Shown here one piece after another: positions 1,198 through 45,100 of a stretch of DNA of 64,000 bases. The DNA is from Candidatus Micrarchaeota archaeon (GTDB lineage Archaea > Micrarchaeota > Micrarchaeia > Micrarchaeales > CABMGC01): assembly GCA_028866835.1 (NCBI GenBank), contig JAGWHJ010000002.1:330-64329 (forward strand), given 5' to 3'. A program made the translations under genes and the position numbers. The notes below the pieces were generated by a model. The model saw only the letters and a list, made by a program, of their open reading frames with translations. It searched no databases and was not told the origin of the DNA. The stretch's first letter is position 1, and each line of letters opens with the position of its first letter.

Positions 1198-1198
1198 T

Positions 1199-26437: not shown

Positions 26438-27130
26438 ATGAGCCACATGCCAAAATCTTCAAGGGGAAAAAGCATACTCTACGTAAGGGCAGCATCGCTC
26501 AACGACCTTTGCAGGTACTGCTCAAGGTTCGACTTCACTTCTGACAACCTCTTTGTTACCGACGGCAGTTCCGGCGCAAGGGTAATGGCTTTTGGCGAGA
26601 GCATAGGGAAGACAACAATAGCGTATTACGTTGACATGGATGCGAGGAGCAGGCTCATCAAGTACACGCTCCCCACATCAGCACAGGGCTCCGAGCGTTA
26701 CTCGTTCGTGAGCAACGCAGAGGAGCAGCCCGGCAACTACCTTAATGTCATAGGCATCGACATGCATAGGTTCGGCAAGGCGAAGAGCCTCAAGAGCGGT
26801 GAGATAAGCATAGTGATGATGAGCGATGCGCCCAGCATAATAAACGCGGTCATAAAGAAGTCGATGAGGAACGAGATGCTGCTGCATCTATATTCCTTCA
26901 AGTACAAGGACAGGACGGTCCTGTGCGGATTCGATCTCGTGGACGAGCTTGTTGACGACACAAGGATATTCTACTACGCCTTTTCCAAGCCCATAGAGCA
27001 GCCATGCTTCGCAAGGTATGACTATATAAATGACAAAGTAGACTTTACAAACACCGTAGGGGAGCACTCCTACATGTACACCAAGATAATAAACCTCGCA
27101 GAGCAGTTTCCTTTTTTCAGGCCCGAATAG
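26438..27130 (+). CDS. hypothetical cytoplasmic 230-aa protein
   Basis: ORF track. Start abuts the preceding stop (TAGATG). Its last 10 nt overlap the tRNA-Asn 5' end. Confidence 0.5.
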   Translation: MSHMPKSSRGKSILYVRAASLNDLCRYCSRFDFTSDNLFVTDGSSGARVMAFGESIGKTTIAYYVDMDARSRLIKYTLPTSAQGSERYSFVSNAEEQPGNYLNVIGIDMHRFGKAKSLKSGEISIVMMSDAPSIINAVIKKSMRNEMLLHLYSFKYKDRTVLCGFDLVDELVDDTRIFYYAFSKPIEQPCFARYDYINDKVDFTNTVGEHSYMYTKIINLAEQFPFFRPE

Positions 27131-27192
27131 CTCAGTGGTAGAGCGTCTGGCTGTTAACCAGAAAGTCGCAGGTTCGATCCCTGCTTCGGGCG
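27121..27192 (+). tRNA. tRNA-Asn(GTT): tRNA-Asn (anticodon GTT), no encoded CCA
   Basis: Folded by hand: acceptor GCCCGAA/TTCGGGC, D arm GCTC-AGTGGTA-GAGC, anticodon arm TCTGG-CTGTTAA-CCAGA, T arm GCAGG-TTCGATC-CCTGC, discriminator G. Confidence 0.9.
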
Positions 27193-27212
27193 ATGCACTT
27201 CAAGGTAGACCC
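27182..27212 (+). repeat. repeat family copy R0: tRNA-Asn 3' end plus trailer (3' module only)
   Basis: TGCTTCGGGCGATGCaCTTCAAGGTAGACCC. Same string as the 3' module of R2, R3, R4 and R6. Confidence 0.8.
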
Positions 27213-27219
27213 CCGCTCC

Positions 27220-27227
27220 TTTTATAA
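27220..27227 (+). promoter_or_regulatory. TATA-box-like TTTTATAA, 25-32 nt before GTG 27252
   Basis: Spacing fits an archaeal leaderless promoter. Confidence 0.35.
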
Positions 27228-27251
27228 TCAAACTACACAAGGATACTGATT

Positions 27252-27704
27252 GTGGTGTCGAAGCGGAGAGGCCTAAATCCAGCGCTTAAAGAACTCAGTA
27301 TACTGGTAGGTGGCTGGGACATGGAGTTATCCAATGCTGCATTCTTGCCAAATCCCAAAGCAAAAGTTCATGGGCCTGCCTCATTCAAATGGATAGAGGA
27401 TGGTGCCTATCTAGTCGCATATCAAGGGGCCAAAGGCGCACCGCAGTCTAGATGGCTGATAGGGCGTGACGAAGCGACAGGCCAATACAAGGTCGTTTAT
27501 TTTGACTCCAGGGGGGTATCTAGGATCTATGACATGAGCTTTAAGAAAGGGGTTTGGAAGATGTGGAGAAATGCACCGGATCTACCGCAAAGCTTCAGGG
27601 GCGTTTTCAAGGGCAGAAACACGATAATCGCAGAATGGAAGACCGCAAAAGATGGGAGGCATTTAAAACACGATTTTGATATGAAATATACAAGGAAAAA
27701 GTGA
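27252..27704 (+). CDS. DUF1579-like / lipocalin-like small protein
   Basis: LKELSILVGGW start and an all-beta pattern typical of the family. GTG start. Confidence 0.45.
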   Translation: MVSKRRGLNPALKELSILVGGWDMELSNAAFLPNPKAKVHGPASFKWIEDGAYLVAYQGAKGAPQSRWLIGRDEATGQYKVVYFDSRGVSRIYDMSFKKGVWKMWRNAPDLPQSFRGVFKGRNTIIAEWKTAKDGRHLKHDFDMKYTRKK

Positions 27705-27714
27705 ATTTTAAGAG

Positions 27715-27770
27715 CTTCCTTGTCGGGATGCGCCTAGCGAACATCTTGTGCATCAGGCGTAGAGTTCTTG
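27715..27770 (+). repeat. repeat family copy R1 (diverged)
   Basis: CTTCCTTGTCGGGATGCGCCTAGCGAACATCTTGTGCATCAGGCG...TTCTTGAC. Confidence 0.65.
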
Positions 27771-27813
27771 ACGCTAGAAGTAATTTGCCATCTTGGTGGT
27801 GTAACATAACAGA

Positions 27814-28407
27814 CTACCCACCAACAGTTCCTGTCTTAACTTCCCCAGCTCGCTTGTAATTCGCCATGACAACGCCGCTTGGCGTGGTCGTACTCTCCGT
27901 TAGTTTGAATGTGGCCGGAATGGTGCCCTCTGCAAATAGCTTTTGTCCTTGACCAAGCGTCAACGGATAGGTTACTAATCTGAACTCGTCAACTAAATCA
28001 TTCTTCATTAGTAGCTGGATGAGCTTGCCACTGCCCCAAACATGAAGGTCAGAACCGTTTGAATCTTTAAGTTTCTTTATATCTGTCAAATTTTTGAGGA
28101 ATGTGGTGTTCTTCCAATCTGACTTTTCCAGAGTGTTGCTCAGAACGTACTTCATGCCGTAGTTTATGCCTGGCCAGATGTCTTTGTGCTGTGGCCAGTA
28201 GCTGGCAAAAATCTCGAATGTTTTTCTGCCTAATAGATATTCTGCAGGCTGCATATTTTTTTGGAAGAAATCGCTCCCGTTGTCATTCGAAAAAGGTGCT
28301 GTCCAACCGCCATATTTGAAACCGCTTGATGTGTCTTCCTCTGGCCCGCCGGGAGCTTGCATTACCCCATCTAGCGTAATCATTGTTATGACGATTATTT
28401 TTCTCAT
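27814..28407 (-). CDS. dihydrofolate reductase-like (RibD C-terminal domain) family protein
   Basis: MRKIIVITMITLDGVMQAPGGPEED...GGW; VWGSGKLIQ. Confidence 0.85.
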   Translation of the reverse strand: MRKIIVITMITLDGVMQAPGGPEEDTSSGFKYGGWTAPFSNDNGSDFFQKNMQPAEYLLGRKTFEIFASYWPQHKDIWPGINYGMKYVLSNTLEKSDWKNTTFLKNLTDIKKLKDSNGSDLHVWGSGKLIQLLMKNDLVDEFRLVTYPLTLGQGQKLFAEGTIPATFKLTESTTTPSGVVMANYKRAGEVKTGTVGG

Positions 28408-28455
28408 GTTTATCGACTTTTATTTAAGTTATTTAAACTTAGTTATTTATTAGGT

Positions 28456-28512
28456 TTCTTGTCGGAGATGTGCCTGACGCACATCTTGTGCTTCGGGCGA
28501 TGCCCTTCAGGT
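28456..28512 (+). repeat. repeat family copy R2 (best-preserved core)
   Basis: TTCTTGTCGGAGATGTGCCTGACGCACATCTTGTGCTTCGGGCGATGCCCTTCAGGT. Confidence 0.85.
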
Positions 28513-28541
28513 TCTGCTCCCGCTTAGTGAAAGTTGCTGCG

Positions 28542-31500
28542 CTATGTGCACTCAAAGCCGCCATAGCTGCAGGATATTGTAGTAGGGCAGGCTGAAGGGC
28601 ATGTGTACCCTGCTATTACAACCTTGTAGCATGTGTTGCATGCATAGTATCCTTGCTGCACAGTAGTGGTTGATGAAGACGACGTGCTTGTTGTTGAGGT
28701 GGATGTGGAGACAGTGGAAGTTGACGTTGAAGTTGTACTGCTTACACTGCCGTATATGGGTATGGCAACATGTGTCACTGCGCCGGCCGCGACATTAACG
28801 TAGTTGGTGCTGTTTGTTATGTTGTTATACGTTGCATCCACCTCATAGTTACCTGGCACTACGGTGTATCCGCTGTCGTATTCGCCGTTTGAGCCGGTGT
28901 ACCATCCACTATAAACCTGCCCACCAGGAGAGAATGCACGTACCTGGGCACCTCCAGCAGGCGCACCGTTGTAGTGGACGGTTACGTTAAGCGCACCGTA
29001 TCCTGAGCCGCCATTTATCGTTGTTGTCGTTGAAGTGGATGTAGCGGTGGTAGTGGTAGAACCAATGCTGCCGTTCATGGATACATAGATCACCAAAGGC
29101 ACTGTCACATTATAGGTTGCATTGGGGGTTGCCATGCTTGCGGTAATTTTGGCTACATATACACCTTTGCGCACTCCTCCGCCAAGCGATATCCGTAGTG
29201 CTGTAGAATCATAAAGTGTCTTGGTGTTTGCAGGTGCTGGATCTGGCATGAATACGGCGATGGTGTTTACAGGGCTATCGCCGATATAGCGCAGAGTCAT
29301 GTTTGCTGCATAGGGAGTTAATGGGATGCACGGCAGCGACCTGTTGAGCCCTATGTTGAACGAATTGCACAGCCTTACCGTGATGTTATCTGTAAACGAG
29401 GTCGGGGTGTTGGGAGCTGCATGCATTGTGCTGTTTGTCAGGCTTACGTTAAGCGTAGTAACCGGATAGCTGCCTGAAAAGACCACCACCGGTATGCTGT
29501 AGGTCCAATAGGCGTAGCCTGCGCCGAGCAGGGGTGGGAAGGGCCCACCCGCAGCACCAACCAGCGGAGTAAAGTTCAGGTGGTATATGCCTTGCGTGTT
29601 GCCTGTGTGCCAGACGAAGTCAGCGCCAGCAGCATTGTTGGTCAGGCCAAGAGCATAGCCTTTCATGTTGCCGCAGGCAGTCTGATTATTGTACCCGTTG
29701 AACCATCTGGTGCACAGCGTGCCGTTTGAAGGTGACGGATATGTGCCGCTCACCGAGCCAGAGTCTGTGCGCAAGCCCAGAATGACACCACTCGCAAGCA
29801 GCCCCTGCTGGGCATACAGCATCGTGAGGTTTACCGGCATTGCGCTGTTGATAGGCGCTGCACCATACGGATACGTCGCTGGCCACGAAATGTTGTAAAC
29901 GAAGATGCCCAACGTCTGCACGAGCACATCCGTAGGGCCGTTGACGCAGGCAGGATTTGGTCCAGCTATGAGCGCGTATCCGGGCTTGTACGCATTCACC
30001 TTGTAGCAGCCCCCTGCGAGCACGGGGGTAACAAGCTGGCCGTTCGTTCCAGTGATGTTCGAGTAGGCCGTCTGTCCGTTTGGGCCGACAAGCGAAACTG
30101 TCACGCCGGCAATGCCGTTGCTGGGGCCTCCGGCACCAAAGCCCCCTCCAAAGCCCGTATATATTGTTACGGTGCCAGGCGCGCTGCTGCTCGTGTAGAC
30201 TGCCTGCGCCTGTGTGGGGCCCACTATCTGGAAGGTCGCATCGGACGTGTTGAACGTCTGGTGGAACTGCGTTGTGCCTACCTCAGAATACACACTCCAG
30301 TAGCTGAAGTAATACGTTTTGGATTGCGTCCTCACAACCTTCGGTGCGGTCAGCGTTACCGGGTCGAACAGTGCGTAGTAATTCTTCCCAGGCCCCACAG
30401 CGGTGCTTGAGCCATTCACCGCACGCATACCCGGCGGCAATGTTGACGATTCGTTCATTAGCGCATATATCGCATAATCAAAAAAGGCACCGCAGTAGCC
30501 AGCACCGCATGCATATGACACAGACGCATTGGTACTGTTGTATCCTGTAAAGTTGCCGAACGGTGTTTCTTCATAAGGAGTTGAGAACACCTCAACGCTT
30601 GCATTCATAAGCAAGGCATTCTGCGAAGTAGTCGTGATGTTGTACTGGAAGAGGCCTCCGGTATTGAGGTTGGATCCGCCAGGCCCCCAGTTCCACCACG
30701 TAACGGGGTCTATTGGGCTAAGGGGTCCACCCGTCCCGGTCATTGAAGGCGGAATCGGGCTTCCAGTGCCGGTAAAGCCGTACTGCACACTTGGTATCTC
30801 TTGATACGGCAACTGCGGGTTAAGTCCGGAGGCAGCCCAGCCTTCGGTGTCTATGCAGTCTTCAGCCCAAAGACAGTCTCCTGTGCCAAGGTTCCACTGG
30901 GGCGCCTGCGGCGGCGTCATCCCATACTGGAGCATTGGCATAGCAAAATATTCTCCGATGCACAACGACGTGCCATCGGGCGGCGGTGGCGGAGGGAAGC
31001 AGAGCGAGGCGCTCATCGGAAGACCCTGCCCCGAAGAGTTCCCTCCGATTCCAAATCCGAGCGGCAGCGGAGCCCAGTATACCAGATATGCAAACTGCTC
31101 GTAGTAAGTGTAGTTGCTAAGCCACTTATCATAAGGGCCAAGCTCGTAGGAGCCGTCAAGGTAGGCATCCAGTATCGGATCGTTTGACGCCTTTTTCAGG
31201 TTGCTGATCGTGTTGGTTCCATTGAAGTTGATGAACTTGACGCCCATCTGTTTTGGTGCGTACACAGGCCTTCTTTCAAAGAAGGTTAGAAGCGCAGCCG
31301 ATAGCGTGCTGCTGTTCTCATAACCGATGAGCAGAAATACCGTCTGCCCAGCTGCCCATATGTCCTTTCTGCTTATTATTACCCCTTTGGTGTGGTTCAG
31401 TGCGCTGTTCAGTGCAGTGGAATTCAGCACCATCCCTGCAATCTGCAGGTATGCCGGCTCACTCCTGTTCGCCACGATCACTATGAAAGATGATTTTCCT

Positions 31501-31766
31501 ACAGTGCTGAAGTTCGAAGAGTTGGCATACAGGAAATTGTAATCCTGCTCGGCAAGGCCGGCAAACTTGCTGTTGTTCGCAAGCACCCCTGAAGGCGCAA
31601 CCAATGCAAACGACGCTGTTCCAAGGTGCGCATAGGGATCTGCTCCGCTAAGATTCTCTATCTGGGACGTACCAGGCGATCTCGTGGCTAGTAGGAACAC
31701 AGCAACTATGGCCAACACTACTACAGCTACCAGAACAATGACATAGCCTGACCTTTTCTTGGCCAT
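28542..31766 (-). CDS. 1074-aa N-terminally anchored surface glycoprotein with carboxypeptidase-regulatory-like domains and Cys-rich C-terminus
   Basis: MAKKRSGYVIVLVAVVVLAIVAV anchor, dozens of N-x-S/T sequons. GVTVSLVGPNGQ...CYKVNAYKPGY and VTVHYNG...NYEVDATY are CarboxypepD_reg-like. Ser/Thr linker, then 7 Cys in the last 35 aa. Confidence 0.8.
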   Translation of the reverse strand: MAKKRSGYVIVLVAVVVLAIVAVFLLATRSPGTSQIENLSGADPYAHLGTASFALVAPSGVLANNSKFAGLAEQDYNFLYANSSNFSTVGKSSFIVIVANRSEPAYLQIAGMVLNSTALNSALNHTKGVIISRKDIWAAGQTVFLLIGYENSSTLSAALLTFFERRPVYAPKQMGVKFINFNGTNTISNLKKASNDPILDAYLDGSYELGPYDKWLSNYTYYEQFAYLVYWAPLPLGFGIGGNSSGQGLPMSASLCFPPPPPPDGTSLCIGEYFAMPMLQYGMTPPQAPQWNLGTGDCLWAEDCIDTEGWAASGLNPQLPYQEIPSVQYGFTGTGSPIPPSMTGTGGPLSPIDPVTWWNWGPGGSNLNTGGLFQYNITTTSQNALLMNASVEVFSTPYEETPFGNFTGYNSTNASVSYACGAGYCGAFFDYAIYALMNESSTLPPGMRAVNGSSTAVGPGKNYYALFDPVTLTAPKVVRTQSKTYYFSYWSVYSEVGTTQFHQTFNTSDATFQIVGPTQAQAVYTSSSAPGTVTIYTGFGGGFGAGGPSNGIAGVTVSLVGPNGQTAYSNITGTNGQLVTPVLAGGCYKVNAYKPGYALIAGPNPACVNGPTDVLVQTLGIFVYNISWPATYPYGAAPINSAMPVNLTMLYAQQGLLASGVILGLRTDSGSVSGTYPSPSNGTLCTRWFNGYNNQTACGNMKGYALGLTNNAAGADFVWHTGNTQGIYHLNFTPLVGAAGGPFPPLLGAGYAYWTYSIPVVVFSGSYPVTTLNVSLTNSTMHAAPNTPTSFTDNITVRLCNSFNIGLNRSLPCIPLTPYAANMTLRYIGDSPVNTIAVFMPDPAPANTKTLYDSTALRISLGGGVRKGVYVAKITASMATPNATYNVTVPLVIYVSMNGSIGSTTTTATSTSTTTTINGGSGYGALNVTVHYNGAPAGGAQVRAFSPGGQVYSGWYTGSNGEYDSGYTVVPGNYEVDATYNNITNSTNYVNVAAGAVTHVAIPIYGSVSSTTSTSTSTVSTSTSTTSTSSSSTTTVQQGYYACNTCYKVVIAGYTCPSACPTTISCSYGGFECT

Positions 31767-31863
31767 CGGTACATCCCCCTCCGCCGCAATATTAAAATAC
31801 ATCCAGATTATTATTTAAATTACCATATGTTATTTACCTCTATCAATATAGCAAAAGGGCCCT

Positions 31864-31941
31864 AAAATCAAGTCATTTAAAAGTTCTTTGCCGGAGCTGT
31901 GCCTGACGCGCATCTTGTGCTCCGGGCGATGCGCTTCAAGT
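31864..31941 (+). repeat. repeat family copy R3 (with A-rich 5' module)
   Basis: AAAATCAAGTCATTTAAAAGTTCTTTGCCGGAGCTGTGCCTGACGCGCATCTTGTGCTCCGGGCGATGCGCTTCAAGT. Confidence 0.85.
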
Positions 31942-31960
31942 ACGACTCCACAGCCAAATG

Positions 31961-31987: not shown

Positions 31988-34177
31988 ATGGGTCATATGT
32001 CTCGTTTCAGTTTTTTATTGCCAGCGTTATTAATTGTCTTTACATTATCCATTTCCGGCATCTCCTACTCACAACAGGCGTCTTTCACCGTAACGGCAGT
32101 GAACCCAATAGTGTATACAAACACTTCCACACAAAATGCACGGTTCTATTTTAACATAACAAATACAGGAAGCTCGCTGGACTACATCACAATACTGAGA
32201 AGCCAGATGGACATCTCTGGGCCGCTGGGAAGCGGTGAGGCGCTTGGCGTCTCGTCGCCTGAGTTCGGAAGGTCATTAGGGCCCGGAGTCACTGGGCAGA
32301 TGATGGTTATAGTACAATGGACCGGATTGCAGAACTCTCCAGCCGGGGCGGTACAGCTTGGCAATTACACAATATCAGTGCCCTTCAAGTCAGAGGCGTC
32401 CGGTAGCATAGAGACTGTCAAGGTACGAGTTGTGGCAAACAAAGATACCGGCGAATACGAGCCTGATACAAACATAAACATAACTCCCGCCGAGCATTCG
32501 GTAGGCAACGTTTCCGTAACACAGTATAGCATCCCGGACTCGATTTGGACGCTTGGAGGATCGAGTAACCTAAATGTTATGGCAACCGCACCCATGAATC
32601 ACGGCGGGGGAGCAACAAAAGGTGCTGGCACTGGTGAGATAACAACCGGCGGATCCTTTTACGGCATAGTTAACGGCAAGGTAAGCTGGAATTACACCTT
32701 TCCAAGTCCCTCACCATTTGTAACAGCGAGCAACGCATCGCAATGGCAGGCAACCGATACCTACATAAGCGTATCAAATGATGGGAAATATGCTGCTGGA
32801 ATGGACTGGAACGGATGGCTATACCTGTTCAACGCAACAAGCGGCAAGGTGCTCTGGTCCACAAACAGGAGTCAGGACGTAAACCCGCTTTACCCGCCAA
32901 ACAGCAAGCTAGGCGTCGGTTTCCTGACAAGCGGGGCAACGGCGTTCAGCTCTGATGACAGGCTCGTGGCAGCGGCGGGTACCGATGGGGATCTTGTAAT
33001 GTTCAATACCACAACAGGACAGGCACGTTGGTCAAAGCCCTTCTCTGCGGAGATAAGGGCATTGGCTTTCACCAGCGACGGCAAGCTGGCTGTTGGCTCC
33101 GGAGACTGGCATTTGTACCTTTTGAATGCGACTACAGGTGCCACCGTATGGAAGGCAAACGATTATTTCTGGCCGTTCTTCTTCATCGCAATTAACCAGA
33201 ATTCATCACTGATAGGCAGTGGCGGAAAGGACAGCGAGTTCAATGTATGGAATTTGAGCACTGGCCAGTTGAAGTTCCATGAGAATTACACCGGTGCGAG
33301 CGTAGGGTTTGTATCAGGGGGAGGAATAGCAAACAATGGCGATTTCATGGCGAGCATGTGGAGCGGTGGCAACGGCGTGTTCTATTACAACAAATACGGG
33401 CAACTGCTCTGGAAGCACAGCATAAACGGCGCTGTGGCGGCCATTGCGCAGGATGGAAATTACACGCTAGTGTCAGGGTACAATCCGGTTTCCAACGAAA
33501 ATTACATCTATCTTCTTGACAATACTGGCTCGGTCATATGGAACTACACTCCAAACACGCAGACCTCATGTCTGTCAACCATAAGCCCGTTCCCAAGGGT
33601 GCAGCCTAAGTTCGTTAGGCTTTACGAATCACCAAACCACAGAACTCTCATAGGCGCTGTTGCATGCATAGGTGGCACGGTATTCTACCTCAAAATACCA
33701 GTATACAATACCCCTCCTTCGACACCTAATCCGAACAACAACGGTGGCTTGGGATTCGGGAATGGAAACGCACAGCCGCAGCCACCTCTGCCGAACGGCG
33801 GCAAGCTTAATGGCAGCAATGGGACTCTTCCTCCATGCACGCAGAACTGCGCTGCTGGCGGGAGTGTCAATACTACAAACTCTACACGGCCCCCTCAGCC
33901 TAATGGTGCCGGCAACGGCAATCTCCCCCCATGTACGCAACACTGTGCCGTTGGTGGAAGTTCAGGAACCACAACCCCTACTCCAGGCAATGCAACTGCA
34001 GTTAATGGCCAACCAACAGCACCATCCACGATGGCACCTGCCGGTCCGCAACCAACAGTCCAGCCAAACACCACAGAACAAACCACTATAGCTCAAAATT
34101 CCTCCGGCACGCAAAGTCAACCTTCTATATGGAATCAGATAGTAAACTTCTTAGAAAACCTCTTTAAGGGTCTGTAG
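31988..34177 (+). CDS. secreted PQQ-like beta-propeller repeat protein with low-complexity, Cys-motif C-terminus
   Basis: Signal peptide. Repeated LYLFNATSGKVLWS / LVMFNTTTGQARWS / LYLLNATTGATVWK blades. P/N/G/T-rich tail. Confidence 0.8.
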   Translation: MGHMSRFSFLLPALLIVFTLSISGISYSQQASFTVTAVNPIVYTNTSTQNARFYFNITNTGSSLDYITILRSQMDISGPLGSGEALGVSSPEFGRSLGPGVTGQMMVIVQWTGLQNSPAGAVQLGNYTISVPFKSEASGSIETVKVRVVANKDTGEYEPDTNINITPAEHSVGNVSVTQYSIPDSIWTLGGSSNLNVMATAPMNHGGGATKGAGTGEITTGGSFYGIVNGKVSWNYTFPSPSPFVTASNASQWQATDTYISVSNDGKYAAGMDWNGWLYLFNATSGKVLWSTNRSQDVNPLYPPNSKLGVGFLTSGATAFSSDDRLVAAAGTDGDLVMFNTTTGQARWSKPFSAEIRALAFTSDGKLAVGSGDWHLYLLNATTGATVWKANDYFWPFFFIAINQNSSLIGSGGKDSEFNVWNLSTGQLKFHENYTGASVGFVSGGGIANNGDFMASMWSGGNGVFYYNKYGQLLWKHSINGAVAAIAQDGNYTLVSGYNPVSNENYIYLLDNTGSVIWNYTPNTQTSCLSTISPFPRVQPKFVRLYESPNHRTLIGAVACIGGTVFYLKIPVYNTPPSTPNPNNNGGLGFGNGNAQPQPPLPNGGKLNGSNGTLPPCTQNCAAGGSVNTTNSTRPPQPNGAGNGNLPPCTQHCAVGGSSGTTTPTPGNATAVNGQPTAPSTMAPAGPQPTVQPNTTEQTTIAQNSSGTQSQPSIWNQIVNFLENLFKGL

Positions 34178-34194
34178 TAATCTAGAATCTGTCA

Positions 34195-34274
34195 AAAAAT
34201 CAAGTTATTCGGAACTTCCTTGTCTGATATGCGCCTGACGCACATCTTGCGCTTCGGGCGATGCGCTTCAAGGT
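34195..34274 (+). repeat. repeat family copy R4 (with A-rich 5' module)
   Basis: AAAAATCAAGTTATTCGGAACTTCCTTGTCTGATATGCGCCTGACGCACATCTTGCGCTTCGGGCGATGCGCTTCAAGGT. Its last 7 nt overlap the stop of the 34268 gene. Confidence 0.85.
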
Positions 34275-34681: not shown

Positions 34682-34750
34682 TTTTACAATAAGATCCTTG
34701 TCTGAGTTTGCCGTGTAATCACAAATATATGTTTAAGCCCTTACTTATAT

Positions 34751-34776
34751 CTCTTTGCCGGAGATGTGCCTGACGC
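34751..34776 (+). repeat. repeat family copy R5 (5' half only, truncated after CCTGACGC)
   Basis: CTCTTTGCCGGAGATGTGCCTGACGC, then unrelated sequence. Confidence 0.7.
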
Positions 34777-34810
34777 TATTAAAATAGTCCAGGCCAACGT
34801 AACATTTTTA

Positions 34811-34833
34811 TATATATCATAATATGATATATA
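34811..34833. promoter_or_regulatory. perfect 10-bp inverted repeat TATATATCAT-aat-ATGATATATA over the TATA/start region of the PadR-TRASH gene (candidate operator)
   Basis: Read directly. Overlaps TTTTTATA (34805-34812) and ends 3 nt before ATG 34836. Confidence 0.5.
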
Positions 34834-36631: not shown

Positions 36632-37307
36632 ATACCTGACATTCTCATTAATATTTCTGGCAGTATGGCTTTTGGTTTTCCTGCTGAAAAAGCCCTTAAG
36701 ACGAGAGATGTTCTGGGTCAGCATATTCACAATGCCCTTCGGCCTTACTGAGCCCCTCTTCATACCATTCTACTGGCATCCTCCTACTTTATTCAACCTT
36801 GCAACTACCAGCGGATTCGATATCGAGAGTCTCATATTCAGCTTTGCTGTAGGCGGCTTAGGGGCCATACTATATGAGATTTTTTTCAGGTCAGAGCACA
36901 TCAGGGTCAGCAAACACGAGATGCATAGTCCAAGACACAGGTTCCATCTTCTCGCAATAATATCGCCTGTCATAGTGTTTGTACTATTGCATTTCTTAAC
37001 CAGTCTAAACCCCATATACGCTGCAAGCATAGCTATGTTTATAGGAGGCATTGCAACGATGCTGTGCAGACCAGATCTAAGTAAAAGGGTTATCACAGGA
37101 GGAATAACGTTCTTGGCTATATACTTCGTTTTCTTTCTGCTATTTGTCATGGTTTATCCCTATGCAGTTAAGGGGTTCTGGAACCTCGGAGCCCTGTCCG
37201 GAATCCTCGTAATCGGAATCCCCATAGAAGAGCTGATCTTCGCATTTACATTCGGGATGATGTGGTCAAGCGTTTACGAACATATTAATTGGTACAGAAA
37301 CAAATAG
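36615..37307 (+). CDS. polytopic membrane protein, possible lycopene-cyclase-domain family
   Basis: About 7 helices. [11 protein letters not shown] resembles the PxEE motif of CrtYc/Yd-type domains. Weak. Confidence 0.4.
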
Positions 37308-37315
37308 TTGATATT

Positions 37316-39388
37316 ATGGCAACAGATCCAGTATGCGGCATGTACGTTGATGAGAAAAGCTCCACATTGGCTACCGAAAGGGAGGGCAGGAAGTACTATT
37401 TCTGCAGCACAAACTGCAAGCTTCAGTTCGAGAGGCCTGAGAAGGAACTCAGGAACCTGAGAATCGCACTTATGGTTTCATGGCCCCTTACTATCGTAGT
37501 TGCAACACTTACTTACGTTCTGCACTTTGGCTTTGGCAACTACACAATGCTGGTCCTTGCAAGCATAGTGCAGTTCTATGCCGGACAGAGGTTCTACGCT
37601 GGCATTTTGGATGCAATAAAGAACAGGTCTGCCAATATGGATACACTGATTGCAATAGGCACAAGCGCAGCATGGGCCTATAGCACTGTGGTCACGCTCT
37701 TGCCATCAATCTTCCCTGCTGGAGGGGTATATTTCGATACCTCGACAATAATCATCTCCCTCATACTGACTGGAACGTACATGCAGAGGCTCGCAGAATC
37801 GAGGGCGTCAACTGCAGTCTCTGCACTAATCGCACTGCAGCCGAAAATAGCACATAAAATTGACGGTAACAAGATCACAGATACTCTGATAGAGCGGATC
37901 AAGGAAGGCGACCTGCTTCTTGTAAAGCCGGGCGAGAAGATACCGACCGACTCGGTTGTTGTGGGGGGCGAGAGCTCGGTTGACGAATCCATGATAACAG
38001 GGGAGAGCATGCCTTTAACTAAAAGGGCAGGAGACAAGGTTATAGGAGGCACCATAAATGCAACAAGTTCGCTAAGGATTAAGGCTGCAAAGGTCGGTGA
38101 AGACACGGCACTGGCGCAGATAATAAAGATTGTGCAGGATGCAGCCTCAAGCAAGGTTCCGATACAAAAGCTGGCTGACAGGATCGCATCATATTTCGTT
38201 CCTATAGTAGTGCTTGTGGGGATTGTCGCTTCGCTGGCCTGGTACTTTATCGGAGGAGTAGGGGCAAACGTGTCAATACTCATATTCGTAAGCGTGCTGA
38301 TAATAGCATGTCCGTGTGCGCTTGGCATAGCAACTCCAGCCGCGTTATTGGTGTCATCCGGGAGGGCAGCCAAGCAGGGGATACTGGTAAAGAGCGGAGA
38401 GAGCCTGCAGAAAGCAAGCAGGGTAAATGCACTGGTATTGGATAAGACAGGAACACTCACCAAAGGCAAGCCAGAAGTTACAGACATAATTGCTGTTGCT
38501 GGGCATAATGAAAGGGATATACTCAGGTTCGCAGCCACGGCAGAGATAAATTCAGAGCACGTGATTGGCAAGGCTATACTGGCGAAGGCCAGCAAGTCAG
38601 GTGTTAGAGCCAACTTCCCTAAAAAGTTCACCTACAAGCAAGGAAGCGGCATAACTGCGATTGACAAGAATGGAACCAAGATAACAATAGGGAACAGGGA
38701 TCTGTTCAGTAAAGAAGGGATGGCTGTATTAGAGAAGCAGCTAAACAAGCTGGAATCCGATGGCAAAACTACTCTTATAGTTGGTATAGATAACAAGGCC
38801 ATAGGGTTGATAGCCTTGGCCGATGTGCTCAAGGAAGACAGCAAGAAGGCGATAAGCTCTTTCAAGAATGCAGGCTATGACATATGGCTCATAACAGGGG
38901 ACAACGAGAGGGTAGCTAATGCCATTGCAAAGCAGTTGGGTATAGGCAACGTTGTCTCACGGGCAAAGCCCAAGGACAAGATGGATAAGATAGCACAGCT
39001 GCAGAAGGGCGGAAAGGTTGTTGCGATGGTCGGAGACGGCATAAATGACGCACCTGCGCTGACAAAGGCCGATGTCGGAATAGCGATTGGTGCAGGCACC
39101 GACGTTGTGCTTCAGGCCGGAAGCATAGTTCTGATAAAGAACAGCATCTACGATGCATTCATCGCAATACAGCTGGGCAAGAGGACAATGGGCAAGATAA
39201 GGCAGAACCTCTTCTGGGCATTCGCATACAACATAGTCTTGATCCCCGTAGCTGCTGGCGTGCTAATACCTTTCTTCACGGTAAGTGTCTATAGCTTTTT
39301 GCCCGTATTGGCCGCCTTTGCCATGGCGTTTAGCTCTGTGACAGTAGTTTCCAATTCCTTGTTGCTGGCGAGGTTCAAGGTACCGTAA
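37316..39388 (+). CDS. copA: copper-translocating P1B-type ATPase with N-terminal YHS/TRASH domain
   Basis: [11 protein letters not shown]...[12 protein letters not shown]; CPC in [11 protein letters not shown]; DKTGTLT; GDGINDAP. Confidence 0.95.
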
Positions 39389-39431
39389 CGACCCGCACGC
39401 CCAGGCCACTACGCCCCTTACAATCTAAATA

Positions 39432-39488: not shown

Positions 39489-39520
39489 CTGGTATACACG
39501 TTCATATGCGAAAGCAGGGC

Positions 39521-39598
39521 AAAAATCGACGGTATAAAAATCCTCCTTGCGGGACGTGCCTTACGAACATATTGTGCATCGGGCGATGTGCTTCAGGC
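39521..39598 (+). repeat. repeat family copy R6
   Basis: AAAAATCGACGGTATAAAAATCCTCCTTGCGGGACGTGCCTTACGAACATATTGTGCATCGGGCGATGTGCTTCAGGC, followed by AGACCC as after the tRNA. Confidence 0.8.
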
Positions 39599-39682
39599 AG
39601 ACCCATACGGGACAAACTGATAATGCGGCGGACATAATTACAGGGATTACTACAAGGCTGTGCTGATCCCGCCCATTCACTA

Positions 39683-39940
39683 CTATCTGTGTTTCTTAGG
39701 AACAGTTACCCAGTTGTATATCAAAGCTATTATTGCGCCAGCCGCCGCACCGTCAAAGAATGCCTCTATTCCTCCTATCATGCCGCCAACCAGTCCAGGA
39801 GCATAGCCGGGATAGACTGTAGAAAACACTTGCACAAAGCCAGACGCCCAGTACGGTGCCATCCATCCGCCAGCGAGCATGCAAAGCCCCCACGGTACCC
39901 CGATTCCTAGAGCCAGCCCCTTTACACTTAGCTTGTCCAT
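39683..39940 (-). CDS. small two-helix membrane protein ('..LIYNW' family), paralogue of 35275-35646
   Basis: GGIEAFFDGAAAGAIIALIYNWVTV versus IIDIVLGALAGLAIALVYNWALK. Confidence 0.6.
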   Translation of the reverse strand: MDKLSVKGLALGIGVPWGLCMLAGGWMAPYWASGFVQVFSTVYPGYAPGLVGGMIGGIEAFFDGAAAGAIIALIYNWVTVPKKHR

Positions 39941-40030
39941 GCTATCATCATATTGGCTTACCCTGCAAAGCTTAATAATCTAAAATCCTTGCCCATGAAT
40001 TTATAAAAACATGGATACAAAGGCATACTA

Positions 40031-41362
40031 ATGGAGGGCAAAGGGAAGGGCAAGGTGGGGGTTGCCGTTGCAGCGGCAGTAGGGCTCGGCGCCATAATAG
40101 GTGCAGGCATATTCGTGCTCAGCGGCACGGCCATAGCCCTTTCAGGCACGTACGCTTTGGTCGCGTTTGCAATAGTCGGAGTGCTTGCTTTCATAATAGC
40201 CCTCGAGCTCGGCGAGCTCGGTTCCCTGATGCCGTACGTGAAAGGGGCATCGTACTCGTACACATACAAGGCCTTTGGAAGCGAGCTAGGCTTCATAACA
40301 GGCATGCTGAGGTACATGGCGCTTTCCACATCAATAGGCGCCATAGCCCTGGGGTTCGGCTCCTACCTTGCAAGCTTTGCCGGCATATCAATTGCAGTGT
40401 ATGCCATACCCTTCGCCATAGTGCTGATATTCGTCCTGTCGATAGTCAACATGTTCGGCGTCAAGAAGGCAGCAGAGATGGACTTCGTTCTTGTGGCCAT
40501 AAAGATAGGCGTGCTGATTGTTTTCATAGCCTTCGCGTTGTTCCTGGCGCTTAACAGCCCGCAGCTGGGCCTGTCCAACCTCTCTTTCGGAGTACCGAGC
40601 GGAGGCGCAATTGGCGGCATATTCGCCGCCTCAATCGCCGTATTCTTTGCGTATTCCGGCTTCCAATCCATATCAACGATCACGGATAGGATAAACGGAG
40701 GGGCAAGGGGATACGTTAAAGCGATACTCACCGCAGTTACTATAAGCGTAGCGCTGTACCTGCTTGTGGTGCTGGCAATGCTCATAATGATGCCGCCGTC
40801 GGCCTACAAGATAGCGGCGGATCCGCTGGCTACGGCGCTCAAGAGCGTGAATGCGCCATCCTGGCTCTTCGTGATAGTGGACATAGGCGCCCTCGTGGCT
40901 ACGGCATCGGCCACCATAGCGATGATACTGAGCTCGTCGCGCTCGCTGTACCAGATGAGCATGGACAGGCTCCTGCCAAGGTTCTTCAGGAAGTACAATG
41001 CAAAAACCGACACCGCTGAGAACGGCATAATAATATCCGCAATAATAGGCGTGATGATACTCTTCGCCGGCAACATCTACATAATAGCGGCCATATCAAA
41101 CTTCGGCCTCATGTTCGATTACATGATCATAGGCTTCGACGTCATACACTTCAGGAGGAGGAATGTTAAGGCGCCGTTCGCCATGCCGCTTTATCCATAC
41201 CTGCCGATCGCCAGCGTGATACTGCTGCTTGTGATGTTCACTGGAATGCCGCAGGAGGCTCTGGCCATAGGCGTCGTGCTTATAATGCTCCTGCTTGTCG
41301 TGTACTACTCGCTCCGTGAGATAAGGGAGAAGAAGGTAATACGTATAAGGCTGTTCGAGTAG
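40031..41362 (+). CDS. APC-superfamily amino acid permease
   Basis: GLGAIIGAGIFVLSGTA; about 12 helices. Confidence 0.9.
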   Translation: MEGKGKGKVGVAVAAAVGLGAIIGAGIFVLSGTAIALSGTYALVAFAIVGVLAFIIALELGELGSLMPYVKGASYSYTYKAFGSELGFITGMLRYMALSTSIGAIALGFGSYLASFAGISIAVYAIPFAIVLIFVLSIVNMFGVKKAAEMDFVLVAIKIGVLIVFIAFALFLALNSPQLGLSNLSFGVPSGGAIGGIFAASIAVFFAYSGFQSISTITDRINGGARGYVKAILTAVTISVALYLLVVLAMLIMMPPSAYKIAADPLATALKSVNAPSWLFVIVDIGALVATASATIAMILSSSRSLYQMSMDRLLPRFFRKYNAKTDTAENGIIISAIIGVMILFAGNIYIIAAISNFGLMFDYMIIGFDVIHFRRRNVKAPFAMPLYPYLPIASVILLLVMFTGMPQEALAIGVVLIMLLLVVYYSLREIREKKVIRIRLFE

Positions 41363-41386
41363 CGCGAGGCCAGACGGCGGGCTTCT

Positions 41387-42727
41387 TCAGTCTGCGGTAT
41401 GGCTGGGCTTTCTATGGCCCATGCCTTTGCTGTTTGCCTTGCTTGTAAAGAATTCCGGGGGAGCGTCCCTGAAGATTACCTCCCTCCTCGGGTACTGTAT
41501 GCTTATCCCCTTCTGCATGAGCCTCTTCCTTATGTTGTAGAGCAGATCCTTTGACATCTGGAAGTTTGTTCCCTGGTCCGGGGCGTTCAGCAACAGTCTC
41601 AACTGAATTCCGGACTCATCGTACTCCATTACGTGCACCGCCGGCAGGCCCTCGGTTGGCACCGCTGACGGATGCTTTCTGGCCTCATCCTTCATTATCT
41701 CAATGACCGTATCGAGATCCGCTTCGTACGGCACCTGTATGAATACTATGCAGAGCTTTGACTGGTCCGTCATTGTGTAATTGACCAGAGGCGTGTTAAG
41801 GAAGATCTGGTTAGGGATCACAAGCCGCCTCTTATCCCAGGTCTTGAGTATCGTGTACGAGAGGCGCAGGTCCTCGACCCAGCACCACTCTGCGCCCCAC
41901 GGCATCTGGAACAGGACCGCATCGCCTATCCTGAACGGCCTTGATGTGGAGACTATCATCCCAGCGAATATGTTGGATAGGCTGGACTGAGCCGCCAGCC
42001 CGATGACTATGGATGCAAAGCCTGCCGCGACGAAAAGCGATGCGACTGTCGCCCCTGCGCCCGGGAAGCTTGTAAAAGTCACAATGGCCACACCCACCAG
42101 CGCAATCACCGCAAGGATCAGTCTCCTGCCGAATGTTACAGTGATGGCCATCTGCGGCTCCTTTCTTGATAAAACCGTCGCGTACTTCTTGAAAGCCGCA
42201 TTTGCTATGTAGGTAACCAGATATACCAGTATCAGTCCGGTCCCGAATCCCACGACCTGCCAAACGCCGGTGACGACCACAGGGCTAGCCGGAGATGTGA
42301 GCAAAATGAATGAAAGTGCTATGAGTCCCAGTGTATAAACGCCGTACACCAATACCTTGTCCGCCTCCTTGTGTCCCGTAAGGTTGGTCATTACGTCATT
42401 GGCTATCACACCGAAGGTGCGTACCGTCACGGCCAATATCACTATCTCGATTGCAATCGTTATGGCGTCCTGGTTCAGTGCGGGCAGGGTTATGGAGAAT
42501 AAGCGCACGGCCTCGAAAAGCGCGAACCCTACTATCCCTGCAGAGACCGGGCCAGCGAATATGCGTTTTATCGAGCGCTTTATGGGGTCCGGCAATTTCG
42601 AACCGTTGACAATTCTTCGGACCACAAAAAAACTGAGTGCCGAGATGGCTACCGCTATGCCCAACGCACCCATAAGATCTACCGCTATTGTTGCGACCAT
42701 AGGACTCCCAATGCAACAAGTTGCCAT
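41387..42727 (-). CDS. MscS-family mechanosensitive channel
   Basis: LSNIFAGMIVSTSRPFRIGDAVLF pore-helix/beta-domain junction. Confidence 0.85.
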   Translation of the reverse strand: MATCCIGSPMVATIAVDLMGALGIAVAISALSFFVVRRIVNGSKLPDPIKRSIKRIFAGPVSAGIVGFALFEAVRLFSITLPALNQDAITIAIEIVILAVTVRTFGVIANDVMTNLTGHKEADKVLVYGVYTLGLIALSFILLTSPASPVVVTGVWQVVGFGTGLILVYLVTYIANAAFKKYATVLSRKEPQMAITVTFGRRLILAVIALVGVAIVTFTSFPGAGATVASLFVAAGFASIVIGLAAQSSLSNIFAGMIVSTSRPFRIGDAVLFQMPWGAEWCWVEDLRLSYTILKTWDKRRLVIPNQIFLNTPLVNYTMTDQSKLCIVFIQVPYEADLDTVIEIMKDEARKHPSAVPTEGLPAVHVMEYDESGIQLRLLLNAPDQGTNFQMSKDLLYNIRKRLMQKGISIQYPRREVIFRDAPPEFFTSKANSKGMGHRKPSHTAD

Positions 42728-42900
42728 CTACTGTCTAGTAAAAGCCCGATAAGACAAAATCTGGTCTGGAAAAGACCGGCAACTATTAATCCGTCTTTCA
42801 CGGCAAAGGTATATAAATTTTAGCAAGATTTTCGTTTTCGAAGATCAGCATATGCTCTTTTCTTTTTGAAAAATAATGGGCTTAGTATCGGCAAGATTAT

Positions 42901-43419
42901 TTATGGCTCTAGTTCTAGTTTTTCTGCACAGATCTTGATCGCAACCAAGACAATTATTCCAGATACGAGTACCAGCAGGCCCGCATAACTTACATGAAAG
43001 ATGACAAATGCCAGTGCAGCGCCCATTGCTGGAGCATGCACATTATTGGTTTCGAAAAGGATCAGGGACATTGAGAAAAGAACAACTGTTACGGCCCCAT
43101 AAAAGCCAACATACGGTAGCGATAGGTAACCAATTTCGCCTACAATCCCTGCTATAATATAACTTAGAACGAACTTTCTCATGTTTGCCGATTTAGAATA
43201 CGGCGTCATGAATATTATGAAGGAGCTTGCGGCGAAAGAGGTGAAAATTATGGTAGAATCGCCGTTTGCCATTAGATTGCTGTTTACTATGCTTAGTATA
43301 AACACGAGCAGCAGCATGGTTCCGGTTGCGAGAAATAACGGGATCAGAATATGTTTTTTGTCGCGCTTGTGTCTGGATGCCTTATATCTTTCAAAGTTAA
43401 ATCTTTCGCTTAAGCTCAT
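42901..43419 (-). CDS. HPP-family membrane protein
   Basis: Four helices. NVHAPAMGAALAF resembles the HPPAGA motif. Confidence 0.5.
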   Translation of the reverse strand: MSLSERFNFERYKASRHKRDKKHILIPLFLATGTMLLLVFILSIVNSNLMANGDSTIIFTSFAASSFIIFMTPYSKSANMRKFVLSYIIAGIVGEIGYLSLPYVGFYGAVTVVLFSMSLILFETNNVHAPAMGAALAFVIFHVSYAGLLVLVSGIIVLVAIKICAEKLELEP

Positions 43420-43464
43420 GGATGATTCATCTGCACCTATCTTTATCTACGTTGGGTTATTTAA

Positions 43465-43659
43465 TTTGTTTCGCACGATAAGGGCAAACCCCAGTCTGAG
43501 ACATGCCTATTCAACATCTGGCTGTTTGCTCCGGGCGTTATAAACCCCACCTATGCGGTGTATTGGTTTATGATGCAGATAGGCATGCTCCTGGGACACC
43601 TCACCAGCTCTCCGGCAAACTGGTTCCTAGTGAGACACGGGATAAAGGAGGGCATGTAG
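43465..43659 (+). pseudogene. 5'-truncated remnant resembling the C-terminus of DUF4396 membrane proteins
   Basis: Frame open only from 43465. ...PGVINPTYAVYWFMMQIGMLLGHLTSSPANWFLVRHGIKEGM*. No plausible N-terminal part or start context. Confidence 0.45.
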
Positions 43660-43682
43660 CATATCTGACGATTTAGAATCGA

Positions 43683-43760
43683 AACTCAAACTATTTGAAT
43701 CCTTCTTCCTTGAGATATGCCCGGCGCACATCTTGTGCTTGTGGAGACGGCCTTAAAGTG
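43683..43760 (+). repeat. repeat family copy R7 (3' module diverged)
   Basis: AACTCAAACTATTTGAATCCTTCTTCCTTGAGATATGCCCGGCGCACATCTTGTGCTTGTGGAGACGGCCTTAAAGTG. Confidence 0.7.
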
Positions 43761-43766
43761 CGGTCC

Positions 43767-45029
43767 CTATACGGCAAGAAAAATCCAGCATACAATGACG
43801 TTCAGTGACGTAACCACGATACCAACCTTTGCAAAGTCAACGAATGATAGCACATGGTCGTATTTTCTCTCTGCAATCTGTATTATGATGATGTTGCTTG
43901 CTGCACCAAATACGAACAGATTGCCGGCTATGGTGCTGCCTGCGGCAAGCGCCATTGCCTCTGCTGTAGAGACGTGGGCGTATGCCAGCAACTTCAGATA
44001 AATAAGCACCATTGGGACGTTCGAAACTAACTGGCTTCCAAGCACATTAACCAAGAGTATCGTAGGCACCGACCCTAGGTTTAAATTTGCGCTTCCTATC
44101 AAATTCTGCAAGAATCCAGACTGCCATACGCTTCCTACAAGTACAAACAGCGCCATGAAAAATATTATCGTACGCCAATCGATGTTTGCGACCAATGACA
44201 ATCTTTTGTTGCTGAAGATCAGGATGGGCAGGGCAGCCATTACTGCTATATATGAAAAACTTAAGCTCACAGGAACGTCTGTTACTTCTACCGTGGCATA
44301 TATAATCACCGATATGGCCATAATGGCGAGAGATAGCTTGCATAACCCAGCGAGTTTCTTGTCCTTTAGCGGAGGGCGCGTATGGATCAGCGGCTCACGG
44401 TGAAACTCTTTCCTATAAAACGCTTTTAGGACCAGGTATGCGATCGCCAGATTTATGGCTGTTGGAACCAGAAGGTAACTGAAGAACGCGACAAACGGAT
44501 CCTTCACCAGACCGCTAGAAGCGACTATAAGATTCTGCGGATTTCCTATAGGGCTTGCAACGCTTCCTATGGTAATTGCAAAGGCAAGCGACAGCAGCAA
44601 GAGATTAGGATTTATTCTCCATCTCATAGCAAAAATCATAACTACGGGGGTTACGATCACCGCAATCGTATCATTAAGCAAAAACATCGATGCAAAACCC
44701 ATAACCAGAAGCACGAGGAGTACGAGTTCGTCGACTGAACTTGCAACCTTGAATATCTTATAAGATAGGTACTGCGCATAACCGCTTTCGGTTAGCGCTT
44801 CACCCACTATGAAAATACCCAAAAGAAATGTTATCACTGTAAGATCAATGTAGGAAGCTGCCTCGTATGGAGATACCTGCCCAGTAATCATAACTGCTAG
44901 AGCTCCTCCAAGCACGATCTGCCATATCTGTAACCTTATATTGCCTATCCGCCTAAATGTTATTAGTACAAACGCTATCACTAATACTATTACCGATAAG
45001 GGAGGAAGACCCATGCCCATATAAGGCAA
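43767..45029 (-). CDS. ArsB/NhaD-superfamily (SLC13-like) anion permease
   Basis: 420 aa, about 11-12 helices. N-terminal VIAFVLITFRRIGNIRLQIWQIVLGGAL pattern of this family. Confidence 0.65.
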   Translation of the reverse strand: MPYMGMGLPPLSVIVLVIAFVLITFRRIGNIRLQIWQIVLGGALAVMITGQVSPYEAASYIDLTVITFLLGIFIVGEALTESGYAQYLSYKIFKVASSVDELVLLVLLVMGFASMFLLNDTIAVIVTPVVMIFAMRWRINPNLLLLSLAFAITIGSVASPIGNPQNLIVASSGLVKDPFVAFFSYLLVPTAINLAIAYLVLKAFYRKEFHREPLIHTRPPLKDKKLAGLCKLSLAIMAISVIIYATVEVTDVPVSLSFSYIAVMAALPILIFSNKRLSLVANIDWRTIIFFMALFVLVGSVWQSGFLQNLIGSANLNLGSVPTILLVNVLGSQLVSNVPMVLIYLKLLAYAHVSTAEAMALAAGSTIAGNLFVFGAASNIIIIQIAERKYDHVLSFVDFAKVGIVVTSLNVIVCWIFLAV

Positions 45030-45043
45030 TGGATCTATTTAAG

Positions 45044-45100
45044 TCTCCTGCGTAAATTGTGCCTCGGCCTTTTTGCTTTGATGTCGCTGTTCTACCTTTA
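45044..45100 (+). repeat. possible degenerate repeat family copy R8
   Basis: TCTCCTGCGTAAATTGTGCCTCGGCC..TTTTTGCTTTGATGTCGC aligns loosely to TTCCTTGCCGGAGATGTGCCTGACGC..CTTGTGCTT..GATGCGC. Confidence 0.3.

Follow-up and report, generated by a model that had tools for sequence, protein, structure and literature searches.

Repeats of the tRNA-Asn 3' end as probable attachment sites delimiting gene cassettes in a Micrarchaeota genome

How does a row of single genes, each set between copies of the end of one tRNA gene, come to stand in an archaeal genome? The question is raised by a stretch of 64,000 nucleotides (the window; contig JAGWHJ010000002.1, positions 330 to 64,329, assembly GCA_028866835.1) from a Candidatus Micrarchaeota archaeon. 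Here the 3' end of tRNA-Asn(GTT) and its trailer recur on the plus strand as six full repeats of about 100 nt (R1-R4, R6, and R7) and one truncated repeat (R5), splitting about 18 kb into units of one or a few genes. Micrarchaeota are ultra-small, host-dependent archaea with reduced genomes, and how they acquire adaptive genes is poorly understood. The repeats are most probably attachment (att) sites of integrative elements that, in one Micrarchaeota clade, use the 3' end of tRNA-Asn as their target, and the window most probably holds a tandem accretion array of such elements. Each integration would regenerate tRNA-Asn and push the older units outward. The integrase genes would then decay and leave units in which one or a few cargo genes are still flanked by both att sites, and these units, with a median spacing of 0.86 kb, would be cis-mobilizable cassettes. 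Serial integration at a tRNA gene predicts a B-O-P' junction at the tRNA and P-O-P' junctions at every internal position, and it is against this expectation that the repeats can be read.

The tRNA-Asn gene and its repeats

The primary attachment target (attB) is tRNA-Asn(GTT), and the core that it shares with the repeats is formed by its last 11 nt, TGCTTCGGGCG. An earlier note, made from the letters of this DNA alone, had reported that the tRNA end and its trailer recur on the same strand, and both pattern and profile scans confirmed this. A 28-nt degenerate core pattern has six matches in the window, all on the plus strand between 27.7 and 43.8 kb, where dinucleotide shuffles lead one to expect 0. 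A nucleotide profile of 108 nt was built with nhmmer from 35 copies in the window and in related loci (numbered L001 onwards). The copy at the tRNA itself, R0 (27182-27215), aligns with profile positions 68-101 only and thus lacks the 5' arm, as had been noted. The copies away from the tRNA do carry an extra 5' arm, but its length had been put at about 35 nt and is in fact 65 nt in most copies and about 200 nt in R6. The long arm of R6 is 79-84% identical (blastn) to sequences in L003, L009, L014, L020, and L024, and arms of this type terminate elements bearing integrase fragments in L014, L020, L024, and L038. R5 had rightly been described as broken in the middle of the element: it retains the 5' arm and the left half of a palindrome and ends directly after GCCTGACGC. 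The copies are essentially intergenic as claimed, except that R4 extends with its 3' arm into the stop end of the open reading frame (ORF) at 34268-34681. A doubtful eighth copy, R8 (about 45030-45150), found no support, since the profile did not match it even at E=50. The base composition of the array is not distinct from that of the rest of the window.

The anatomy of the site was derived from an alignment of 44 distinct full copies. The 5' arm of 65-200 nt consists of a variable distal part, of which about six sequence families are shared between species, and an A/T-rich, TATA-like box at a fixed position. This box is followed by (C)CTTGTCGGAG, by a palindrome with an 8-bp stem and a 5-nt loop (AGATGYGC-CTGAC-GCRCATCT), and by TTG. 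Next comes the core TGC(T/A)TCGGGCG, which is the tRNA-Asn 3' end, and then the 3' arm, ATGCGCTTCAGG-N-CCCC...ACAAGMTA, which in autonomous elements would lead into the integrase gene. Only a single pair of the palindrome varies (T-A in 24 copies, C-G in 8, T-G in 8, and C-A in 4). Six copies folded singly as RNA gave z scores of -0.3 to -2.3 against shuffles, which is not significant, and the structure differed per copy. Because of these folds and the single varying pair, the palindrome is read as a protein-binding or DNA-level feature. Two independent breakpoints lie just past the palindrome loop, at 34776 in R5 of the window and, directly after GCCTGACAT, at 14215 in L035/L039. They may have arisen aberrantly at a second site for cleavage or binding that precedes the tRNA-like core.

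The pattern scan covered one genome per species of 185,579 prokaryotic species and matched 23 loci in about 21 metagenome-assembled genomes (MAGs), which come from acid-mine sites and are labelled Candidatus Micrarchaeota (two Marsarchaeota). tRNA-Asn(GTT) is the only tRNA found in the 23 loci and, wherever it is in view, lies upstream of the repeats on the same strand. Several of the MAGs with arrays have contigs of 438-771 kb and still show a single locus each. In total, 64 copies are distributed over 27 non-redundant loci, none of which has copies on both strands, and the spacing between repeats ranges from 324 to 4,792 bp (median 861 bp). Being limited to one locus and one clade, the repeat is not a dispersed intergenic repeat. 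Scatter throughout the genome, which the earlier note had set against its own reading, is not what is seen: in every genome where the repeat was found, it is confined to the tRNA-Asn locus. Displaced fragments of tRNA-Asn, 40-55 nt long, are also present in the arrays of relatives, beside copies with a different 5' arm. Given such att variants within the same arrays, several types of element have evidently used tRNA-Asn.

Junctions and shared cassettes

An empty and a filled site can be compared directly. L035, L036, and L037 have the order tRNA-Asn, AAA_14 cassette, repeat, CitMHS cassette and so on, and share with L038 an identical protein (P0014) encoded by F2, the gene next to the tRNA. 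L038 and L035 are 99.9% identical in both flanks, and in L038 the tRNA is followed directly by 3,304 additional bp. A 23-bp direct repeat, TGCATCGGGCG(A/T)TGCGCTTCAGG, bounds this insert on either side. The left end of the insert consists of a 3' arm and an integrase fragment, the right end of a long 5' arm and the palindrome, hence of a full repeat. The full repeat is therefore the distal junction of an element integrated at tRNA-Asn. The crossover would lie within the 23-bp block TGCWTCGGGCGATGCGCTTCAGG, and the A/T marker tentatively suggests that the exchange took place to the right of position 12. In another pair, L024 and L026 are 99.95% identical across 13.7 kb and then diverge exactly inside a core; the tail of L026 matches the start of the array in another MAG, L018, at 100% identity.

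The arms of the repeats are linked to the cassettes. Sequence 5' of the core goes with the cassette to the left, and sequence 3' of the core goes with the cassette to the right. This is best seen in five AHSA1-type cassettes, in which the 5' arm family of the right-hand repeat is constant while the 3'-arm variant of the left-hand repeat tracks the cassette and not the preceding arm. Judged from the sequences, this linkage points to P-O-P' junctions. Two genes, F1 and F2, stand before tRNA-Asn in all relatives seen, whether these have an array or not, and F2 overlaps the start of the tRNA by 10 nt. In the array-free loci L031 and L032, which belong to more distant relatives, the synteny of F1, F2, and tRNA-Asn is kept, there are no repeats, and the trailer is unrelated to the arm. 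The trailer of the tRNA in the window is thus derived from an element, as expected of a B-O-P' junction. Insertion at tRNA-Asn has been serial, and the layout foreseen in the earlier note, with B-O-P' at the tRNA and P-O-P' at internal junctions, is supported by the arm linkage and by the pair of empty and filled sites. Its distal P-O-B' junction at R7 could not be demonstrated, the 3' arm of R7 still resembling the element type.

Pfam confirmed the contents that had been guessed for the cassettes (Table 1), and every cassette of the window is bounded by repeats and comprises cargo genes only. When the ORFs of all loci were clustered, the same families were found at differing ranks, namely the propeller, the SRPBCC protein, the 1086-aa protein, the copper set, CitMHS, AAA_14/DUF4143, AbiE, and MazF. 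The propeller is fourth in the window, second in L001, and behind the copper set in L008; the SRPBCC family is fifth in the window and first in L002; the 1086-aa family is third in the window, first in L016, and also present in L011. CitMHS stands directly after a repeat in L006, L015, and L035 as well. The copper set occurs in six loci, AAA_14/DUF4143 and AbiEii/AbiEi each in several, and MazF in two. The order of the cassettes is permuted, the propeller preceding the copper set in the window and following it in L008. Therefore, deletions from one ancestral array cannot be the source of the differences. Orientation with respect to the repeats is fixed within each family, and the only exceptions are divergent members, an 800-aa ATPase in L013 and an AAA_14 gene in L008.

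The shared cassettes are also more similar than their surroundings. In nucleotide identity, the unit of cassette 1 reaches 83% to the first cassette of L019, where core genes have 67-68%. The propeller cassette has 84% to L008 and 75% to L001 (blastn), and the SRPBCC cassette 81% to the first cassette of L002, in an alignment that spans from the core to the next repeat. Segments of the copper set in the window are 73-85% identical to L008, L012, L021, L023, and L024; between other loci the set reaches 88-93% (L024 compared with L008, L012, and L023), and the MazF unit of L024 is 88-91% identical to those of L017 and L018. Overall, shared cassettes are 73-93% identical, except for the 1086-aa protein and CitMHS, whereas the F1-F2 core genes beside the tRNA have at most about 70% identity over partial alignments or no blastn match at all. 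The F2 proteins are 36-59% identical between genomes. Alignments of cassettes start or stop at repeats. Cassettes thus recur as units between species, and polymorphism of single cassettes at repeat boundaries, which the earlier note had named as a check, is abundant among the relatives.

Some cassettes have details of their own. The window copy of the copper cassette contains two segments (35640-36309 and 36577-37301) that L008, L012, L023, and L024 lack in copies otherwise collinear with it; they hold an ORF at 35656-36150 and the lycopene_cyc-domain ORF at 36612-37307. At 17191-17200 in L024 the copper and MazF cassettes meet directly, without an intervening repeat. A repeat-bounded unit in L003 (4534-7441) and L009 (1605-4512) encodes an 834-aa protein with partners of 208 aa and 120 aa, which by eye only seem to be related to defence.

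Integrase remnants and the origin of the array

Integrase decay is evident in the relatives. In L006, L014, L019, L020, and L024-27, truncated tyrosine-integrase ORFs start to the right of the core, at a distance of 40-70 nt. These fragments, 17-228 aa long and located at the left ends of some units, match the N-terminal half of Pfam Phage_integrase, and the fragment in L030 retains only the distal part of the 3' arm. In L019 and L020 the fragment is followed by a gene for a winged helix-turn-helix (wHTH)-PCNA protein. An exhaustive HMMER search revealed a large family of tyrosine recombinases of about 400 aa with a C-terminal zinc ribbon. The nearest full-length relatives, P0029 and P0031 (410-413 aa, 43-44% identical), have their genes immediately behind tRNA-His(GTG) in L041 and L044. 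Three further copies of the 3' 18-mer of tRNA-His, GACTCCCGGCCGAGGCCT, lie in L044 at 10254, 11323, and 11738 with semi-conserved arms, and these repeats surround ORFs of 277, 82, and 247+ aa. The locus forms a parallel mini-array in which the integrase is retained. The tRNA-His sister system hints that such a platform is a general property of this integrase clade.

Some other possibilities for the recombinase were weighed. An ATG inside the repeat is in frame with the integrase in L019 and in the reconstructed circle of L020, which would be compatible with a split integrase of the type known from Sulfolobus spindle-shaped viruses (SSV). However, the N-terminus of the fragment aligns with the N-termini of the full-length relatives, so that the integrase gene seems not to be split by the att site. 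F1 and F2 were considered as hidden recombinases, but they have no similarity in Pfam or PDB and are conserved where no array exists, and were therefore rejected as genes specific to the array. The distant integrase matches P0005 and P0007 are found on contigs with neither the repeat nor tRNA-Asn.

The earlier note had left a choice between a recombinase acting in trans and decayed att scars. Both are partly true, for the att sites of relatives do carry decayed tyrosine integrases. Since cassettes recur unit by unit at other ranks and with an identity above that of core genes, we infer that they are still excised and inserted as units by a tyrosine integrase in trans, which a rare autonomous element or another part of the genome would provide. 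More tentatively, and with some doubt, it could be proposed that this DPANN clade, whose genomes are about 1 Mb in size, maintains a dedicated cassette-exchange platform at tRNA-Asn, in which single-gene units with two-armed sites of about 100 nt are moved between species by an integrase in trans. Such a platform would be an analogue of integrons that evolved independently from integrative elements.

Several results weigh against an array of integrative elements. The statement of the earlier note that no recombinase is in sight holds for the window: there are no integrase families among the ORFs scanned with Pfam (24.1-47.3 kb and ten selected ORFs elsewhere in the window), and a profile from three integrases related to the fragments (family F14) had no match in a six-frame search of the whole window. 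Integrase remnants were not detected in the window cassettes either. Among 5.8 billion clustered proteins there is no intact integrase of the close lineage; only four close homologues exist, all of them fragments, and every homologue with at least 85% identity is a fragment. As to an episomal form, the repeat pattern has 0 matches in IMG/VR and 0 in the JGI metagenome contigs, the integrase fragment has no match in the JGI metagenomes, and R3 has none in phage and plasmid records (blastn). At the nucleotide level, identity between species is only 63-67% for the 1086-aa protein and CitMHS, no more than for core genes, and part of the array may therefore be old and vertically inherited. Junctions without a repeat and breaks inside the palindrome point to ordinary deletion as well. 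In addition, the comparison data are MAGs and metagenome contigs throughout, in which repeats can cause mis-joins. However, the repeats are shorter than assembly k-mers, and the pattern recurs in many independent assemblies.

Much of this could be accommodated if the repeats were inert scars, left by old serial integrations of full-size elements and subsequent gene loss, with homologous recombination across the repeats of about 100 nt reshuffling the cassettes after DNA uptake. In favour of this, none of the close integrase copies is complete, the CitMHS cassette in L006 and L035 comes after an integrase remnant of 17 aa, certain junctions are simply deletions, circular forms were not found in the viral, metagenome, phage, and plasmid scans, and the conservation of the repeat across species would be sufficient for homology arms. 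We nevertheless consider inert scars, the main rival, unlikely, although homologous recombination across the repeats may account for exchange between species. Because the tRNA lacks the 5' arm, the insert that distinguishes L038 from L035 is bounded by a mere 23 bp of identity, which is a signature of site-specific recombination and is not explained by arms of 100 nt. This insert contains only a 97-aa integrase stub despite flanks 99.9% identical to those of the empty strain, which suggests recombination without an enzyme of its own and would fit an integrase acting in trans; alternatively, the stub could have formed after insertion. It is also hard to reconcile with inert scars that orientation is kept per family (with the two divergent exceptions), that units are as small as 0.32-0.57 kb, and that the repeats are more conserved than neutral scars should be where core genes are at most 70% identical.

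It is far less probable that the repeats are repetitive extragenic palindrome (REP)/REPIN elements or hairpin elements of the IS200/IS605 type that a Y1 (HUH) transposase would move in single-stranded form. The strong conservation of the palindrome, the location of all copies on one strand, and the two breakpoints right after the hairpin loop would agree with this. A Y1_Tnp gene is present in the window, the only transposase among the ORFs scanned, and a similar C-terminal TnpA fragment lies inside another array (L003, 3-266). Yet the gene in the window is 26 kb upstream of the array, the copies occupy one locus per genome, downstream of tRNA-Asn, and what is left of recombinases at the sites belongs to tyrosine integrases and not to Y1 transposases. 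The inserted unit moreover lies between 23-bp direct repeats of the tRNA end, which to our knowledge Y1 transposition does not yield. Hardly credible, and the least probable of all, is the reading of the repeat as a tRNA-derived sequence, duplicated in intergenic DNA, that serves as a gene for a small structured RNA or as a regulatory element or terminator, although the TATA-like box keeps a fixed distance to the conserved ATG and the hairpin that follow it, one hairpin pair has T-A, C-G, and T-G variants, and a T-arm-like stem abuts the 3' strand of the tRNA acceptor. Single sequences fold no better than shuffles and each copy differently, only one stem pair varies, and neighbouring genes lie on either strand. 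The Rfam scan of the window returned only two tRNAs and the 5S rRNA, with no match to the repeat. Such an RNA would also leave the insertion polymorphism, the arm linkage, and the adjacent integrase remnants unexplained.

Known systems and remaining features of the window

Taken as an accretion array of integrative elements, the locus is the archaeal counterpart of bacterial cis-mobilizable elements (CIMEs) and tycheposon islands and not an integron of the IntI/attC type. CIMEs (PMC5704250) have lost their integration genes and kept attL and attR, as in the examples related to ICESt1/ICESt3 of Streptococcus thermophilus. As in CIMEs, the units accrete at the 3' end of one target gene by successive site-specific integration and could in principle be mobilised by a related integrase. 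However, the array here belongs to a DPANN archaeon and is much longer (7-8 units), its units are often single genes of 0.3-3 kb, the cassettes are common to many species, there is no conjugation module, and no functional partner element was seen for it. Tycheposon islands of Prochlorococcus (bioRxiv 10.1101/2020.12.28.424599) are adjacent to tRNA genes and grow by repeated integration, newcomers pushing older elements inward. They share with the present array the partial tRNA repeats, fragmented integrases, niche-adaptive cargo, and a streamlined genome. Unlike these bacterial islands, the array has a conserved two-armed site of about 100 nt at each junction and not just a partial tRNA, and its units are smaller and more cassette-like. 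For archaeal elements at tRNA genes ('gene capture', PMC8371274), a tyrosine integrase, tandem integration, and loss of the integrase after integration have been described, but arrays of att-flanked single-gene cassettes and DPANN are not mentioned there. In contrast to elements of the SSV type, the integrase here is apparently not split by its own att site.

The comparison with integrons, which the earlier note had drawn, stands for the logic of the system and fails for its defining features, the intI gene, the attC boxes, and the co-orientation of the genes. As in integrons (PMC9668308), there are a fixed platform, a series of co-oriented sites, small cassettes that are shared between species, and a cargo of toxin-antitoxin, defence, and metal-resistance genes. 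Unlike integrons, including the archaeal IntI/attC systems (PMC9668308), the array has no intI beside the platform, where F1 and F2 match nothing in Pfam or PDB. The sites conserve sequence and not just structure, and inspection of the 44 copies revealed no GTTRRRY or RYYYAAC boxes. The 3' end of a tRNA serves as the primary site, and the cassette genes are on both strands, presumably with promoters of their own.

Full-text searches of the literature returned no description of this array. What appears to be new is the DPANN host, the cassette-like size of the units, the two-armed site of about 100 nt at every junction, and the sharing across about 20 species. The locus gathers metal resistance, transporters, toxin-antitoxin pairs, and defence genes as exchangeable units, and the similarity of units far above that of the core genome suggests that horizontal transfer within acid-mine communities follows a specific route. 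Should mobilisation of the cassettes in trans occur, an integron-like solution would have been reached from a different start, a tRNA-targeting integrase. The compact recombination site of about 100 bp and the integrase family would then be worth experimental work. The repeat profile can serve as a marker for the accessory gene pool of this clade in metagenomes.

Table 1. Positions of the repeats, cassettes, and other features (in the window unless a locus is named)
Feature	Position	Strand	Evidence or remark
tRNA-Asn(GTT)	27121-27192	+	ARAGORN; Rfam tRNA 77 bits
F1 (282 aa), F2 (230 aa)	25589-27130		precede tRNA-Asn
R0, core and element-type 3' arm (ATGCACTTCAAGG...)	27182-27217	+	B-O-P' junction
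R1, degraded full repeat, P-O-P'	27693-27774	+	nhmmer 50.6 bits
R2, full repeat	28435-28524	+	nhmmer 80.5 bits; core TGCTTCGGGCG at 28489-28499
R3, full repeat	31854-31953	+	nhmmer 83.7 bits
R4, full repeat	34186-34282	+	nhmmer 79.6 bits
R5, truncated, 5' half only	34747-34776	+	nhmmer, profile positions 30-59 only
R6, full repeat	39516-39606; long 5' arm (about 200 nt) from 39394	+	nhmmer 66.6 bits
R7, full repeat, degraded core (TGCTTGTGGAG)	43671-43770	+	nhmmer 60 bits
Cassette 1, DUF1579-like ORF	27252-27704	+	Pfam
Cassette 2, RibD_C (DHFR-like) ORF	27814-28407	-	Pfam 9e-19
Cassette 3, 1086-aa surface-type protein	28542-31802	-	Pfam CarboxypepD_reg, weak
Cassette 4, PQQ/WD beta-propeller protein	31988-34177	+	Pfam
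Cassette 5, AHSA1/SRPBCC protein	34268-34681	-	Pfam 7e-26
Cassette 6, copper set	34795-39393	+	Pfam; PadR-TRASH 34824-35261, small ORFs, lycopene_cyc-domain ORF 36612-37307, YHS Cu P-type ATPase 37289-39388
Cassette 7	39607-43670		Pfam; amino acid permease 40031-41362 (+), MscS 41387-42727 (-), HPP 42901-43419 (-), small ORFs
Cassette 8, CitMHS transporter	43767-45029	-	Pfam 6e-48; right boundary undefined in the window
IS200/IS605-type TnpA	694-1197; adjacent ORF 1190-1618	+	Pfam Y1_Tnp 1.2e-35
5S rRNA	4985-5098		Rfam 67 bits
GatD	45962-47287		marks an archaeon
tRNA-His sister system	L044 3321-11760; L041 7863-9242		intact integrases

The surroundings of the tRNA gene in the window differ from those in the array-free relatives. 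In the array-free loci L031 (10740-11670) and L032 (10736-12558), tRNA-Asn and tRNA-Lys(TTT) are 0.8-1.7 kb apart, and the pair is followed by an aminoacyl-tRNA synthetase gene, which is of the lysyl type in L031. In the window (27121-56844) the distance between the two tRNA genes is 29.6 kb, with GatD, aconitase, and isocitrate dehydrogenase in between. Given this difference in spacing, insertion or rearrangement in the window may extend beyond the 18 kb that the repeats bound.

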